From: an uncultured Chloroflexia bacterium
Lineage (GTDB): Bacteria > Chloroflexota > Anaerolineae > B4-G1 > SLSP01
Length of the DNA: 64,000 nt
Assembly: GCA_963751345.1 (NCBI GenBank)
Contig: CAVVUS010000019.1
Location: 1 to 64,000 of the forward strand
Direction: 5' to 3'
The position numbers were made by a program, and so were the translations under genes. Shown here one piece after another: positions 8,113 to 33,098 of this stretch (within the stretch, counting starts at the first letter, position 1; the number at the start of each line of letters is the position of its first letter). The notes under the pieces were generated by a model, which had not been told where the DNA came from, did not search any database, and was given only the letters and a program-made list of their open reading frames with translations.

Positions 8113-8153
8113 CCTATCCCTCCAACGTACACTGGTGTGACGATTGATCGAGG

Positions 8154-8225
8154 CTGCGGATCGCAGATCCGCAGGGAACCGAAGACTCCCACCACCGTGT
8201 TCCGGACGGATCTATGATCCGTCCG
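8154..8225. repeat. Dispersed doublet of the GTTC-footed REP family found next to the RAYT
   Basis: CTGCGGATC-GCA-GATCCGCAG-G-GAAC, 19 nt, then GTTC-CGGACGGATC-TAT-GATCCGTCCG. Same architecture as the units at 22923-24101. Confidence 0.85.
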
Positions 8226-9744: not shown

Positions 9745-9810
9745 GTGCCCCCCACCTTTTCTCTTCTGCGATAGCGTTGCGCGCCACGGGCACGGTCTCA
9801 GCCGCTCCGC

Positions 9811-9957
9811 TGGACCGCGGGCGTCTCGCCCGCAAGCACACGGGCACAGCTACGACGGGGCAGCAACTACCTGCGCACTGTTCCTCGTCGCCAGAGCGGG
9901 CGAGATGCCCGCGGTCCGCATGGCGTCACTGCCCATGGGCGAGACGCCCGCGGTCCA
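9811..9957. repeat. Second copy of the TGGACCGCGGGCGTCTCGCCCGC element, with a duplicated right arm
   Basis: Left arm 9811-9833; inverted arms 9894-9917 and 9937-9957. The spacer is recognisably homologous to that at 6551-6611. Confidence 0.85.
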
Positions 9958-14183: not shown

Positions 14184-14216
14184 ACCTTGCGAAGGTTTCC
14201 GAAACCTTCGCAAGGT
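14184..14216. repeat. Perfect 15-bp inverted repeat with self-palindromic arms
   Basis: ACCTTGCGAAGGTTT-CCG-AAACCTTCGCAAGGT. Confidence 0.85.
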
Positions 14217-14226
14217 GGGTTTGAGC

Positions 14227-20880: not shown

Positions 20881-22126
20881 CTACCTCCCCACGGCGGCCT
20901 CAAACACCTCCGCGCCGTCATCCGTGCGCAGAGCGTAACGGTCGAGACAGGCGGGGATGAAGACCGAATCGCCGGTTCGGAGCTCTTCCTGACCATCGTG
21001 CCACGCCAGGTCGACCTAGCCCTTTCACCACCAATAGGATCGCGGGGCCGCCGGCATCCTCCATGACACGCTCGGTGTCGGCGGGGAGCGACCAGCGACG
21101 CATCTCGAACTCCGCCGCGGGCGTCTCGTAGACCGTGCACGCGTCGTCGACCCGATCGCCGGTCAGCACTTCGGGCGTGCGAGGTGTCGCGTCGACGATG
21201 CGCAGCAGCGTCTCGGCATCTCTGAACTTGGGCGTGAGGCCGACGCGGACAACATTGTCCGAGTTTGCCATGCACTCGATGATATTGCCCTTCAGGTAGG
21301 CGTGGGGCACGCCTGCCTGCGTGTAGAGCGCTTCGCCCGGTGCCAGGTGGGCGATGTTGAACAGGAAGAGGGCGAACAGGCCGACATCATCGTTGCCGTA
21401 CTTCCGGCGGAGTTCCAGGAAACGTCTCTCGGCCTCGCCCGGCTCTTCTTTCTGTTAGCCAGCCGTGCGGCGAGCGCGTCGACGGCGTGTCGATATGCTC
21501 GGGGTTCGCTGCGGCGTTCAGGATGAGCGCCGCGAGGACCGCCCGGACCCGCGCGGTCTGCTCCTCTGTGGACAGGTCTCCTGCCCCGGCGATCCGGCCT
21601 ACGACCTCGTCTCCCACGAAGTCCGCGATCTCAGGAGAGCGATCCAGCGTCGTCGCAAGATCGGCAAAAGGCTTGAACCCGATCAGCGCCGTCAATCCGT
21701 CGAGGGCAATGGCGATCTCGGGCTTGTGGTTGTCGTCAGGGTAATGTGCCGGGTCCTTCGCGTGGAGCGACTCCGCCTGGCGCTTCGTGGGGTGGGCCTG
21801 GATGGAGAGGGACTCGCCCGCCGACAGCACCTTGAAGAGGAAGGGTAGCCCGCCAAAGCGATCAAAGACCGCCTGTCCCAGCATAGCGATGGGATGCGCG
21901 GCAATCCACGCGTCCAGCGCTACACTGGTGCCGTCGGGCAGCTCGATCTGCGAGGGAGCCTTGGGGTGCGCCCCAAGCCACAGCTCGGCGTAGGAACGCC
22001 CGGTTCGGGGATCATACCGAGCAAGTGGGGAATGAACGCGTCGGCATCGCGCGTGCCCCACGCGTAGGTCTGTATCTGGTTGTGCATCCGGTACGGGCGC
22101 GGTGTCACGTCGGCGGTATCGGTCAT
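20881..22126 (-). CDS. manA: Mannose-6-phosphate isomerase, class I; frameshifted
   Basis: QTYAWG, YAELWLGAHP, LPFLFKVL, LSIQAHP, DDNHKPE, PHAYLKG, MANSDNVVRVGLTPK. Confidence 0.92.
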
Positions 22127-22197
22127 TGGCTGCTCCTTTGGCGATGTGTGTTCCGACCTATTGTAGCACAGTGGCGCGCAGGGTTCCCGGCATCATT

Positions 22198-22761
22198 CTA
22201 CGCCAGCAGTTCCCTCACGTCATCCAGTGGGATCATCGCGCGCCTTTCCGCGAGGTAGAAGCCTGCGCTCGACCATGGATATGTGTCCGCGCTGTCTGCC
22301 AACTGCCATTTCGGCTGTAGCGGATTGTTGTGAATGTAGGTGAGTTTCTGCATCAGGAACTCCGGCGTAAAGACGTTCTGGGCTTCATACTCATCTTCCC
22401 AGACGGCGTGCTGCTGCTTGGCAGGACGCTTGACGGCGGCTGCGCAGCGTTCCAGCGCTTGTGAGTTTCCCTCGGCTTCGAACTGCCGGAGGATCAGGTT
22501 TGAGGTTGCTTTCTTGTAGTCCCTGACGATGTCAGTTGGCGATATGTCGTTCAGAGGTTGGAGGATACAGTGGAGGTGATTGGGCATGATGACGAAGGCG
22601 TAGAGGCGGTAGCGGCCAAGCAACCGCCCGATGTGGAGGCTGTCCACCAGGATTCGCCTGGTGACGTCTCTGCGAAACAGGAGCTGCCCCTGGATGGCGC
22701 GTGTCGTGATGAAATAGAGGTGACCGGGGTTGACGTGAACTCGCCATTTGGCTGAGGGCAT
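22198..22761 (-). mobile_element. REP-associated tyrosine transposase (RAYT/TnpA-REP; IS200-like Y1 HUH nuclease)
   Basis: Intact 187-aa ORF after an AGGAG RBS. YFITT, AFVIMPNHLH (HUH), QKLTYIHNNP (catalytic Tyr), YPWSSA; adjacent hairpin array. Confidence 0.92.
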
Positions 22762-22829
22762 ATCGCATCTCCTGTAGAGATTGTGGAAGTCCATTGTAGG
22801 CGCGAAGCCGCTCGTGGCCAGCGGCGGTT

Positions 22830-24101
22830 GTTCCCAGCGGATGGGGGAAACGTATGGCTTGCAGCTCGACGAGCGTGCATATGCGACGTGTCTGCTGCGC
22901 TTCGGTGGGTGGCGCCTTGTCGCGGGCGGATCACAGATCCGCCCGGAACGGGCCGTCTGGCCGCCGCCGCGCTGGTTCCCCGCGGATCTGTGATCCGCGG
23001 GCGGATGCGGGTAACGGTGGCTTGCAGCTTGACGAGCGTGGGATATGCGACGTGTCTGCTGCGCTGCGGCGTGTGGCGCCTTGTCGCGGGCGGATCACAG
23101 ATCCGCCCGGAACGGGCCGTCTGGCCGCCGCCGCCGTTTGTTCCCCGCGGATCTGTGATCCGCGGGCGGATGCGGGTAACGGTGGCTTGCAGCTTGACGA
23201 GCGTGGGTATGCGACGTATCTCCTGCGCTGCGGCGGGTGGCGCCTTGTCGCGGGCGGATCACAGATCCGCCCGGAACGGGCCGTCTGGCCGCCGCCGCCG
23301 CTGGTTCCCCGCGGATCTGTGATCCGCGGGCGGATGCGGGTAACGGTGGCTTGCAGCTTGACGAGCGTGGGTATGCGACGTGTCTGCTGCGCTGCGGCGT
23401 GTGGCGCCTTGTCGCGGGCGGATCACAGATCCGCCCGGAACGGGCCGTCTGGCCGCCGCCGCCGCTTGTTCCCCGCGGATCTGTGATCCGCGGGCGGATG
23501 CGGGTAACGGTGGCTTGCAGCTTGACGAGCGTGGGTATGCGACGTGTCTGCTGCCCTGCGGTGGGTGGCGCCTTGTCGCGGGCGGATCACAGATCCGCCC
23601 GGAACGGGCCGTCTGGCCGCCGCCGCCGCTGGTTCCCCGCGGATCATGATCCGCGGGCGGATGCGGGTAACGGTGGCTTGCGGCTCGACGAGCGTGGGTA
23701 TGCGACGTATCTCCTTCGCTGCGGTGGGTGGCGCCTTGTCGCGGGCGGATCACAGATCCGCCCGGAACGGGCGGCTCGGGGCCGGCGCCGTCGCTGGTTC
23801 CCCGCGGATCTATGATCCGCGGGCGGATGCGGGTAACGGTGGCTTGCGGGTTGACGAGCGTGGGATATGCGACGTGTCTGCTGCGCTGCGGTGGGTGGCG
23901 CCTTGTCGCGGGCGGATCACAGATCCGCCCGGAACGGGCTGTCTGGGCCGCCGCCGCCGCTGGTTCCCCGCGGATCTATGATCCGCGGGCGGATGCGGGT
24001 AACGGTGACTGGCGGGTCGACGAGCGGGGATATGCGACGTGTCTGCTGCGCTGCGGCGGTGTGGCGTCTTGTCGCGGGCGGATCACAGATCCGCCCGGAA
24101 C
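22830..24101. repeat. Tandem array of eight ~164-bp units carrying inverted REP-like hairpins (BIME/REPIN-like)
   Basis: Hairpin A CGGGCGGATC-ACA-GATCCGCCCG-GAAC starts at 22923, 23087, 23251, 23415, 23579, 23742, 23909, 24075. Hairpin B GTTC-CCCGCGGATC-T(G/A)T-GATCCGCGGG follows the first seven (2-nt loop in unit 5). Confidence 0.97.
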
Positions 24102-24194
24102 AGATTGGCCGGGGGCTGGATCGGCACGGAACGGGCCGGCTGGGCGTCAATCCGCTCGGTATGCAGGGGCTGCAAATCGGCTATACTTGGGTGT

Positions 24195-24208
24195 AGAACA
24201 TACGTTCG
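24195..24208. promoter_or_regulatory. LexA-type SOS box (GAAC-N4-GTTC) next to a TATACT -10-like element
   Basis: AGAACATACGTTCG at 24195-24208; TATACT at 24182-24187. Confidence 0.65.
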
Positions 24209-24251
24209 GAACGACTTGAGACTGCACGGGTACGGGAGGGGGACGAAGAAG

Positions 24252-24497
24252 ATGGGAACTCTGTCTGGCCTGAACAGGCTCTGGATGCGGGCACACGCGG
24301 TCTATACCGTGGCGTTGCTGGCTATGAACCGGAATCGGTTGCCGCAGGGGTTTGACGCGTGGCTCCTGGCGCGGGCGACGATCGTGCGTCCTCCCGTTCG
24401 CCGCTTCTGGATCGTCGATACAGGGCATAGTCGAGGACCGCGCGCTGCTCTTCTACAGGCATCTCGCTTACGATCCCCAATAGTTCTCGGAGGGTGA
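24252..24497 (+). CDS. Possible small hypothetical protein (81 aa), antisense to the 3' part of the XRE-like gene
   Basis: ATG at 24252 after GGGAGG, downstream of the -10/LexA box. No recognisable domain. Confidence 0.3.
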   Translation: MGTLSGLNRLWMRAHAVYTVALLAMNRNRLPQGFDAWLLARATIVRPPVRRFWIVDTGHSRGPRAALLQASRLRSPIVLGG

Positions 24498-24763
24498 GAT
24501 TCGACGGCTCGCGGTCAGCCTCCGCCGCACGCTCCGGCACGACTATCGGAGTCGCGCGCAACTGCTTCGACCTCCTCAAACGTCAGGCCGAAGGCGGCGG
24601 CAATCGCCCGGATGACCGTGTCGGTGGGGGGCATGCCGCTCCGCTGCCGCCCGCTGATCGTATCGTTGCCGACGTCGCCGGCGCGCTCCACTTTCCGCAC
24701 CGAGCGAAAGCCCCGCCGGGCCATCTCCGCCTCGAACCACTGCCAGAACTGTCGAGCTGCCAT
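24322..24763 (-). CDS. XRE/Cro-CI-like helix-turn-helix regulator; frameshift near 24560
   Basis: GGAGG RBS; MAARQFWQWFEAEMARRGFRSVRKVERAGDVGNDTIS...PTDTVIRAIAAAFG HTH pattern; helical tail LRELLGIVSEMPVEEQRAVLDYALY in the next frame. Confidence 0.7.
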
Positions 24764-24837
24764 GTGATCTGTCCTCCGGGATGTCGAGATTCCCGACAGT
24801 AGGATACACGGGAAGCGACGCGAGACAAGGCTACCCC

Positions 24838-24926
24838 TGACGAGTGACGATTGACGAGGTGATCGGAACATTTGTGTCCGAAGCCGGCCACTTCGTGTCA
24901 ATCGTCACCGGTCACTCGTCACTCGT
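24838..24926. repeat. Inverted pair of heptamer tandem tracts (STRR-like)
   Basis: TGACGAG-TGACGAT-TGACGAG (24838-24858) faces GTGTCAA-TCGTCAC-CGGTCAC-TCGTCAC (24895-24922). Confidence 0.65.
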
Positions 24927-24931
24927 TTTCC

Positions 24932-25708
24932 TCAGAACACCCACGGGATCAGGATTTTGCGCTCCGGCGGATAGTCGGGGAAGGTCGCGTGGTACCAGCG
25001 GTGGTTGGCCACTGCGCGGGGCATCAGATTGGCAAAGGTGAAGAGGGCGAAGGCCCAGCCGGCTGCTGTGCCGCAGAGGATGGCCCACCCGATCCACTCG
25101 ACGATCTCACCCAGATAGTTGGGGCTGGACACGAAGCGAAAGAGCCCCCGCCTGGGGATGCCATAGCGGGCGCCGTTGCCGTTCTCGCGCAGGTCGCGGC
25201 GCAGGCCGCGGATGATCGCGTCCGACCAGATGTTGACCGCGAGCCCGCCGGCAAAGAGCAGCACGCCCACGATGGTGTGCACATTGAGCAGCGTCGCAGG
25301 TGCTCCCGTGGGCCGGGCCACGAAGAGCGCATACCCGTTGACGTAGCCGTTCATCAGGTTGAAGCTCAGCGCGAGGAGCGCCACCACGAGCGGGAAGCTT
25401 CTGCGAGAGCCGCGGAGCAGAGAAGGATAGATCAGGGTGCGGTAGACATAGTGGACCAGCCACACCGTCAGGAAGAACCAGCTTACGCTGCCGGCTGCCG
25501 CCGAATGGTGCGTGATGTACATCACGGGCATCACCATCAGCGCCGGGAGCTCCATCACCAGCCACGCGGTCCGGGAGTGCAGGACCGGCCCCCAATTTCC
25601 CTGGTGGTGGCGCCCATAGGGCGCGGTCACGAACAGAAGCACCGGCAGGACGATGCAGGCGAAGGCGAACTCGCTCACGAGCAGGTAGGTGTAGAGGGTG
25701 TCGGGCAT
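24932..25708 (-). CDS. 3-oxo-5-alpha-steroid 4-dehydrogenase (steroid 5-alpha-reductase) family membrane protein
   Basis: TAPYGRH, AWLVMELPA, HYVYR, SDAIIRGLR, YGIPRRGLF, PNYLGEIVEW, RAVANHRWY, LIPWVF. Confidence 0.92.
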   Translation of the reverse strand: MPDTLYTYLLVSEFAFACIVLPVLLFVTAPYGRHHQGNWGPVLHSRTAWLVMELPALMVMPVMYITHHSAAAGSVSWFFLTVWLVHYVYRTLIYPSLLRGSRRSFPLVVALLALSFNLMNGYVNGYALFVARPTGAPATLLNVHTIVGVLLFAGGLAVNIWSDAIIRGLRRDLRENGNGARYGIPRRGLFRFVSSPNYLGEIVEWIGWAILCGTAAGWAFALFTFANLMPRAVANHRWYHATFPDYPPERKILIPWVF

Positions 25709-33062: not shown

Positions 33063-33098
33063 AAGATTGGACCAATCTTCCGAGATTGGTCCAATCTT
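33063..33098. repeat. Nested palindrome between convergent genes
   Basis: AAGATTGGACCAATCT-TCCG-AGATTGGTCCAATCTT; each arm is itself a hairpin. Confidence 0.75.

Follow-up and report, generated by a model that had tools for sequence, protein, structure and literature searches.

A RAYT gene adjoining a BIME-like array of GTTC-footed REP hairpins in a Chloroflexota draft genome

The 64,000-nt window analysed here, which lies on contig C19 of a 5.40-Mb draft genome (G000; 49 contigs, 62.8% G+C) from an uncultured Chloroflexia bacterium, contains a gene for a REP-associated tyrosine transposase (RAYT, or TnpAREP; REP, repetitive extragenic palindrome) and, immediately upstream of it, a tandem array of hairpins carrying the tetranucleotide GTTC at their 5′ foot. 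Very probably, this locus is a REPtron, that is, a single-copy domesticated HUH/Y1 transposase with an array of its cognate REPs resembling a bacterial interspersed mosaic element (BIME), whose REP family is scattered through the genome and whose clade groups with subclass 2.6 of the RAYTs. A preliminary description of this DNA had proposed a RAYT-REP system with a tag other than GTAG, and the feet of the genomic copies and of the loci of related proteins bear this out. The locus adds a new member to a RAYT branch already known, though only by sequence; its hosts are a group new to that branch, and its foot is a variant by one base. The features of the locus, followed by two others from the window, are listed below.

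22198..22761, minus strand: RAYT/TnpAREP-like HUH-Y1 gene, 187 aa (open reading frame (ORF), Pfam, NCBIfam, homologue starts, AlphaFold2 (AF2) model)
22830..24101, no strand assigned: BIME-like tandem array of 8 units, the first unit without its B hairpin
22830..22842, plus strand: B0 remnant, GTTC foot and first stem bases kept, hairpin taken by a 19-nt deletion
22923..22949, minus strand: REP A1, GTTC-CGGGCGGATC-TGT-GATCCGCCCG on the minus strand (core scan, fold)
22975..23001, plus strand: REP B1, GTTC-CCCGCGGATC-TGT-GATCCGCGGG (core scan, fold)
23087..23113, minus strand: REP A2 (core and pattern scan)
23140..23166, plus strand: REP B2 (core and pattern scan)
23251..23277, minus strand: REP A3 (core and pattern scan)
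23304..23330, plus strand: REP B3 (core and pattern scan)
23415..23441, minus strand: REP A4 (core and pattern scan)
23468..23494, plus strand: REP B4 (core and pattern scan)
23579..23605, minus strand: REP A5 (core and pattern scan)
23632..23657, plus strand: REP B5, 2-nt loop after a 1-nt deletion (unit alignment)
23742..23768, minus strand: REP A6 (core and pattern scan)
23797..23823, plus strand: REP B6, loop TAT
23909..23935, minus strand: REP A7 (core and pattern scan)
23963..23989, plus strand: REP B7, loop TAT
24075..24101, minus strand: REP A8, its foot forming the right edge of the array
8153..8179, minus strand: solitary GTTC REP elsewhere in the window (core scan and shuffle test)
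22793..22820, minus strand: sigma-70-like promoter match, TGGCCA-16-TACAAT (consensus scan, 9 of 12 positions; no evidence of function)

Tandem Repeats Finder reported one array at 22837-24101 with a period of 164, 7.7 copies and 94% matches, and alignment of the units from foot to foot set its span at 22830-24101 (1.27 kb), which places the start of the array 69 bp from the start of the RAYT gene and 15 hairpins upstream of the gene. Each unit consists of a GTTC-B hairpin, a linker of ~87 nt and an A hairpin followed by GAAC, and the units are joined to one another by linkers of 24-28 nt. A palindromic-core scan with the pattern GCGGATC-N2-4-GATCCGC located eight A cores (22926, 23090, 23254, 23418, 23582, 23745, 23912, and 24078), spaced 163-167 bp apart, and seven B cores (22982, 23147, 23311, 23475, 23639, 23804, and 23970). 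The A cores are GCGGATC-ACA-GATCCGC on the plus strand with a GAAC foot on the 3′ side and hence read on the minus strand; the B cores stand on the plus strand with the GTTC foot on the 5′ side. Foot and hairpin A are without a variable column in 27 across the eight copies, and foot and hairpin B vary in 2 of 27 columns across seven copies, both within the loop (TGT in four copies, TAT in two, and a 2-nt loop left by a 1-nt deletion at 23639-23654). Feet and stems are thus invariant, whereas 22 of the 87 columns of the long linker and 11 of the 28 columns of the short linker vary. A ninth GTTC foot of the B type at 22830, whose hairpin was lost by the 19-nt deletion seen in the unit alignment, forms the left edge, and the foot of the eighth A hairpin forms the right edge; both edges of the array therefore end exactly at a foot.

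The preliminary description had an intact Y1 transposase with a ~1.27-kb array about 70 bp upstream, a period of 163-167 bp and eight identical copies of hairpin A, all of which we find. Its seven B hairpins with T(G/A)T loops hold in number and, apart from the copy with the 2-nt loop, in loop sequence; its right limit at 24101 is kept, and the true left start is moved to the additional foot without a hairpin. The pattern GTTC-N3-GCGGATC-N3-GATCCGC has 15 matches in the window and none in each of 100 shuffled versions. When folded as single-stranded DNA (ssDNA), each hairpin forms a 10-bp stem with GTTC unpaired (-12.7 kcal/mol, z about -5), and the differences between the A and B subtypes are confined to compensated stem pairs. 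Long ORFs cross the array, for example at 22854-23486 (210 aa), and are taken as by-products of the GC-rich repeat. A search for Rfam families in 21500-25000 (E <= 1) identified no known RNA family and returned only chance matches to hairpin-like families far below threshold, the best with 26.9 bits against a gathering score of 83.

The open frame of the RAYT gene extends to 22794, which would give 198 aa; nearly all homologues, however, are 184-187 aa long and start at the second Met (22761), 7 nt upstream of which a GGAG is found. The shared start and the GGAG therefore define the gene as 22198-22761, in agreement with the 187 aa given for the protein earlier. The protein matches Pfam Y1_Tnp with 30.2 bits and the NCBIfam model NF047646 (REP_Tyr_transpos, REP-associated tyrosine transposase) with 81.4 bits against a cut-off of 80, and has a single match in its own genome. 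The motifs MPNHLH and YIHNNP supply the HUH residues and the catalytic Tyr in its Y---NP form, and N61, H62, H64, Y142, H144, N146, P147 and the WSS tail are invariant in 22 aligned homologues. Foldseek placed 4er8_A, the E. coli TnpAREP bound to a REP hairpin, as the top match in the Protein Data Bank (PDB) of the AF2 model (predicted local distance difference test, pLDDT, 81.3), with E 2.1e-7 and template modelling (TM) scores of 0.62/0.70 at a sequence identity of 17%. The next structural matches are the TnpA proteins of ISDra2 and IS608. The model has extra helices at residues 100-108 and 113-118, ahead of the strand 121-130.

The genome-wide count of the GTTC hairpin, which the preliminary description had proposed, gave 76 sites of the REP core on 22 contigs. 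The REP consists of an invariant core, GCGGATC-TGT-GATCCGC, and three covarying outer pairs, which together make the 10-bp hairpin, with the unpaired GTTC directly 5′ of the stem in the same place as GTAG in classical REPs. When the 73 orientable copies with 3-nt loops were oriented by loop sequence alone, GTTC was found at the fixed place 5′ of the stem in 68, with GAAC present as well on the 3′ side in only four. In the 46 copies that lie outside both large arrays, the foot reads G in 44, T in 44, T in 45 and C in 41 at its successive positions, and the foot positions can pair in only 18 and 23 of the 73 copies. Covariation of the stem is seen in the outer pair -1/+17 (GC 45, CG 14) and in the pair -2/+18 (CG 20, GC 17, AT 6); an A.G mismatch in the stem occurs 20 times and is common among dispersed copies. 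In the flank table, sequence conservation ends just past the foot. A conserved GA, the predicted cleavage dinucleotide, was not found near the REPs in this table, and nothing is conserved in it beyond foot and stem; the cut site is therefore not readable from it.

The copies are arranged as singlets, as inverted doublets similar to REPINs (REP doublets forming hairpins), as direct arrays and as alternating arrays. Thirteen adjacent pairs stand tail to tail at 35-37 bp, their feet pointing outward; seven are doublets dispersed in the genome and the others lie in a second alternating array at C33:74129-74824 (period 112, 13 REPs, doublets 36 bp apart), which adjoins no RAYT-family match. One of the tail-to-tail doublets folds into a single long hairpin (-40.7 kcal/mol, z -13.6). 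Inverted pairing, doublets foldable as long hairpins and tandem repetition of the doublets, by which BIMEs and REPINs are recognised, are all present, and the anatomy of the family is that of REPs, REPINs and BIMEs.

We then gathered RAYT loci from 40 related genomes, from a GTDB set with one genome per species and from metagenome contigs, and scanned each of them for perfect hairpins. Fourteen loci, including two metagenome-assembled genomes (MAGs) of 'Candidatus Poribacteria', the same-order genome G037 and eight metagenome contigs, encode homologues of 40-60% identity. Of the 78 perfect hairpins at these loci, 40 have GCTC a few bases or less to their 5′ side, which makes it much the commonest tetranucleotide there; GTTC was counted once and GTAG two times. 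GCTC hairpins, one or more, are found at 12 of the 14 loci; the two others are L003, whose gene has an internal stop, and L018, which is cut at a contig end. The stems of the relatives often end in GGAT(C/T)-loop-(G/A)ATCC, like the G000 REP. The homologues of 25-32% identity are flanked by classical GTAG-GGGC REPs. The inspection of homologue flanks suggested in the preliminary description thus returned hairpins of the G[CT]TC type beside the close relatives, with the qualification that the foot is mostly GCTC, and classical GTAG REPs beside the distant ones.

The foot follows the phylogeny of the enzyme. We extracted 149 proteins, after loci with internal stops such as L003 had been skipped, and obtained 127 tree rows by removing 3 duplicates, 7 fragments or partial matches and proteins with lengths outside 150-230 aa; the tree comes from a quick search and is midpoint-rooted. 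All 11 rows labelled G[CT]TC fall inside one group of 13 rows (SH-aLRT 99), and the foot label changes three times on the tree against a mean of 10.7 when labels are shuffled. The sister clades are sequences from Bacteroidota and the candidate phyla radiation (CPR); the G[CT]TC clade, whose identity to those from Bacteroidota does not exceed ~40%, forms a separate, well-supported branch. The non-GTAG foot is real and clade-specific. Since the two nearest relatives with foot data (59-60% identity) have GCTC, the usual foot of the clade, GTTC is the one-base variant carried by this lineage.

A wider protein search gave 265 homologues at E <= 1e-5, of which the best 120 clusters are 47-69% identical to the G000 protein and are called RayT or transposase where the source gives a name. 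An organism is named for five of these 120 (four Chloroflexota-type MAGs and one Gammaproteobacteria MAG); the proteins and loci of the clade, where an organism is named, come mostly from Chloroflexota and Poribacteria MAGs. The closest proteins (60-69% identity, P0002 and others) are encoded on ~1-kb contigs. The metagenome contigs that carry close homologues (P0002-P0120) are for the most part of about this length, which would fit assemblies breaking at flanking repeats.

The published surveys contain a branch that resembles this clade. Subclass 2.6 of Quentin, Siguier, Chandler and Fichant (2018), which is RAYT group 5 of Bertels et al. (2017), has the motifs NH[LIV]H, WQ, YIH[QN]NP and an SS tail, a 21-aa insertion between alphaC and beta4, a median length of 179 aa and mostly Bacteroidetes hosts, and its genes have in their flanks 'atypical secondary structures' without GT[AG]G that recur in the genome (PMC6006769). 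The supplementary table of the same work gives feet GCTC (Flavobacterium indicum), GCTG and GCTA for this subclass and stems topped by GGATT-NNN-AATCC, whereas the canonical 5′ GT[AG]G REPs belong to subclasses 2.2, 2.4, 2.5, 2.7 and 2.8 (PMC6006769). Bertels et al. (2017) found the 16-mers flanking group 5 genes to be about as frequent as those of insertion sequences. The G000 RAYT shares three of the four motifs (NHLH, YIHNNP and the WSS tail), the length of ~180 aa and the low copy number, has extra helices in its model that may lie between alphaC and beta4, and is flanked by hairpins that lack GT[AG]G and recur at other genomic sites; the REP of L110, a sister-clade locus, is nearly identical to a Runella REP listed for this subclass. 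It differs in having WE in place of WQ, in its named hosts, which are mostly Chloroflexota and Poribacteria MAGs and not Bacteroidetes, and in its foot, which is GTTC where the available subclass rows have GCTC, GCTG or GCTA. Placement with subclass 2.6 (group 5) would fit three of the four motifs, the putative insertion in the model and the sister-group position.

Non-GTAG feet are also found outside subclass 2.6: class 3 TnpAY1 has the foot CnGA and the motif Y----Q (PMC6006769), and Di Nocera et al. (2013) described CGTC-tagged REPs. Both are like the present family in having a conserved 5′ tetranucleotide other than GTAG and differ from it in the tetranucleotide itself and, for class 3, in the Tyr motif, which is Y---NP in the G000 RAYT. 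A non-GTAG branch of RAYTs is therefore already catalogued, by sequence only. The suggestion in the preliminary description of a potentially undescribed subfamily is too strong in view of the subclass 2.6 motifs, the Bacteroidota/CPR sister clades and the feet already tabulated, so that the case it had itself foreseen, of a family already in the catalogues, largely applies; the GTTC tag itself was not found in print. GTTC was not found as a foot in the available subclass 2.6 rows of the supplement of PMC6006769; 45 'GTTC' strings occur in that table, and in the passages available they lie inside subclass 2.4 sequences whose feet are GTTG and GTAG. The words GTTC and GCTC are absent from the main text of PMC3733652 and PMC6006769, and none of the matches listed in a literature search combined RAYT or TnpAREP with GTTC or GCTC; REP-associated tyrosine transposases and Chloroflexi were met together in the two family surveys only. 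We found no published description of the GTTC tag or of the Chloroflexota/Poribacteria-type clade, bioRxiv preprint supplements lying outside the search.

E. coli TnpAREP (RayT; 4er8, subclass 2.2, group 2) is the best structural match. Like it, the G000 RAYT is a single-copy gene adjoining its REPs, with a tetranucleotide directly 5′ of the stem and 21 residues between the W motif and the catalytic Tyr, and the array, like E. coli BIMEs, has two REP subtypes in tandem and in alternating orientation. The differences lie in the foot (GTTC versus GTAG), in the stem (a perfect 10 bp without the bulge of E. coli REPs) and probably in the residues at the foot-contact positions. The positions that contact GTAG in E. 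coli TnpAREP are W94, Q95, E100, H101 and R104 (PMC6006769), of which only the W is kept; the equivalents of the other four, placed by a weak alignment and the equal W-to-Y spacing, are E122, A127, Q128 and F131. The TnpA proteins of the IS200/IS605 family (IS608, ISDra2) have the same fold with HUH and a single Tyr, and recognise a hairpin on ssDNA with a guide tetranucleotide 5′ of it.

What the sequences show is the architecture of the locus, the dispersal of the REPs, the association of enzyme with foot throughout the clade, the fold, and a set of catalytic residues that is intact; the following scheme is drawn by analogy with E. coli TnpAREP and IS200/IS605 TnpA. The enzyme would bind the folded hairpin on ssDNA and would read the unpaired 5′ tetranucleotide for recognition, possibly also as a guide; the tetranucleotide is essential for TnpAREP activity in the E. 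coli system (PMC8266576). Tyr142, with a metal site formed by His62 and His64, would then cut nearby and the strands would be rejoined, by which REP/REPIN units could be copied, spread and added next to existing copies. Such addition beside existing copies would account for arrays in which each unit, and the array itself at its outer limits, stops at a foot.

A further proposition, which we put forward tentatively and think rather less probable than its negation, is that the G[CT]TC clade stands apart among RAYTs as a lineage using a guide code of its own, in which the change from GCTC to GTTC on an unchanged scaffold is a natural reprogramming of the guide, with cutting at GA and not at CT if the group 3 rule holds. 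In a group 3 system, the tetranucleotide sets the dinucleotide that is cut, GTAG directing CT/CA and GTAC directing GA/GT (PMC8266576). By analogy with this rule, GTTC and GCTC would both direct cutting at GA. If true, a secondary cleavage site changed or broadened by the C-to-T exchange at the second guide position would be expected, and the first cleavage rule for the subclass 2.6-like branch would be at hand.

To our knowledge, all RAYT biochemistry comes from GTAG systems of groups 2 and 3, and we know the non-GTAG branch (subclass 2.6, group 5) from surveys only. The locus does not overturn current views. It offers a compact test case, with an intact 187-aa enzyme, two hairpin subtypes and a strictly conserved unpaired GTTC foot, and with close relatives whose foot is one base away; canonical GTAG REPs of the same genome can serve as the internal control. 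Whether the 5′ tetranucleotide acts as a programmable guide throughout the RAYT family is a question that the locus could answer.

Several observations weigh against the REPtron reading. The NF047646 score exceeds its cut-off by just 1.4 bits, and in sequence the protein is only weakly similar to 4er8 (E 0.32 for the single sequence, 0.0095 for a profile). The clade profile aligned to PDB sequences in the HUH region alone and did not improve the residue map of the GTAG-contact positions. REPs are seen on one side of the RAYT only, whereas the REPtrons of relatives are often two-sided. The genome is a draft of 49 contigs with an estimated contamination of 5.6%, and a cluster of three REPs with the same flanks occurs twice, at C19:98806-98966 and C31:11199-11359; the REP counts may therefore include a duplicated or redundant contig. 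Further points come from G002, a genome of the same genus (96% complete, 30 contigs). The GTTC pattern has 73 hits in G000, 37 in G002, 1-5 in five other genomes and 0 in the remaining 34, and its reversed-pattern control has 0 in all genomes. The 37 hits of G002 include arrays and one REP at an orthologous site, and no close homologue of the RAYT was found in G002, where the family member most similar to it reaches 25% identity and lacks repeated hairpins in its vicinity. The ~29 kb around the RAYT have no gene-level match in G002; DNA searches of G002 with window positions 9000-38000 returned short dispersed repeats only and no syntenic genes. The repeats can thus persist without the gene, or the gene is missing from the assembly; the absence of the RAYT from G002 may reflect loss, original absence or an assembly gap. 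At the orthologous site, G000 has a doublet and G002 a single double-foot REP with the same left junction, in flanking DNA about 87-89% identical between the two species, and the common junction places the origin of the REP family before their split. G002, with repeats and without the gene, is a ready-made case for the fate of REP populations after RAYT loss.

The repeats and arrays of G002, which occur without a close RAYT homologue, would also suit an origin of the array by ordinary tandem duplication, as a minisatellite, of a REP-containing segment through slippage or unequal recombination; the proximity of the RAYT would then be uninformative as to what mobilises the repeat, with the GTTC REPs being either relics or substrates of a different enzyme. 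The C33 array with the period of 112 and several direct arrays likewise adjoin no RAYT, and the repetition, at 94% identity, takes in the entire 164-bp unit with its linkers, which is what unequal recombination would produce. We nevertheless hold this origin to be improbable, for G[CT]TC-footed hairpins lie beside the gene at 12 of the 14 loci of close homologues, which come from unrelated samples, and chance adjacency cannot explain such pairing. The invariance of feet and stems among variable linkers and the ending of the array at a foot on both sides also speak against it, as does the finding that the other RAYT-family genes of the genome are flanked by other hairpins.

The perfect conservation of stems and feet within a diverging array, and the retention of one REP site in two species, could also mean that the enzyme moves nothing at present, that the REPs are kept for host functions (transcript ends, mRNA stability or sites for DNA-binding proteins) and that the RAYT has some other role on ssDNA; the function of RAYTs is left open in published work (PMC6006769). 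We give this little credence as a full account, given that the enzyme keeps its catalytic residues, which do not vary within the clade, and that the doublet in one species and the single REP in the other at the common site indicate that the element has been remodelled. A scan of 21800-24600 found 0 terminator-like sites, and none of the hairpins in this interval is followed by a T tract of the terminator type. Host functions of the REPs are, for that matter, compatible with mobilisation. As for the same fold and HUH/Y1 chemistry, the next-best structural matches to ISDra2 and IS608 TnpA and a weak match to the IS200 model NF033573, these would agree with the transposase of an autonomous insertion sequence of the IS200/IS605 type whose ends are the hairpins. 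It is very improbable indeed that the gene is of this kind: the NF033573 match has 18.1 bits against a cut-off of 55, the Tyr motif YIHNNP is of the class 2 form (Y---NP) and not the Y---Q of IS200 (PMC6006769), the gene has one copy in the genome with no tnpB-like neighbour seen among the adjacent genes, and ~70 hairpins are scattered without it. We reject an IS200/IS605 identity on the sub-cut-off NF033573 score, the single copy and the Y---NP motif.

The REPtron reading also agrees with what surrounds the other RAYT-family genes of G000. NF047646 has five further matches at four other places in the genome, one over the cut-off and the rest weak or partial, and at E <= 0.001 none of them matches the RAYT protein of the window. 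Their flanks hold different hairpins, and no GTTC REP was found in the flanks of these matches. A family with the pattern GGACC-GCGGGCG-N3-CGCCCGC has 26 footed hits on 11 contigs (core, 60 strand hits, ~30 sites), is present in the window at 9804-9920 and flanks a RAYT-family gene on contig C23 (G000:C23:278898-279227; 93.6 bits to NF047646). The canonical GTAG-AGACGGGGC-N3-GCCCCGTCT family has 22 footed hits on 14 contigs (core, 48 strand hits, ~24 sites) and surrounds a partial RAYT-family match at G000:C19:120789-120956, outside the window. With other RAYT-family genes having hairpins of their own, the genome runs several RAYT/REP pairs, each with its own foot.

In G002, locus L090 (G002:C15:783718-786900) has three GTAG-GGGCAACC hairpins, and the RAYT family model matches it twice, once with positions 7-68 and once with positions 70-131 of the model. 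It may represent a RAYT gene into which REPs have inserted, a situation reported for subclass 2.4.

Around the RAYT gene of the window, the neighbouring genes are of the housekeeping type (phosphomannose isomerase and a steroid dehydrogenase-like gene), and the sigma-70-like match sits between the array and the gene. Just beyond the RAYT stop codon, GTTCCG and GTTCCCGGC occur at 22150-22192 without a hairpin; they may be chance occurrences, or the decayed remains of REP feet on this second flank. Next downstream of the RAYT, the phosphomannose isomerase gene (20918-22126, minus strand) is split into three ORFs of 68, 224 and 130 aa in different frames, and its orthologue in a same-genus genome is one ORF of 434 aa, which suggests either that the gene is a pseudogene or that the draft contains frameshift errors. 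Elsewhere in the window, two palindromic repeats of ~34 nt at 14184-14217 and 33065-33098 have many near-identical copies in G002 and several in G000.

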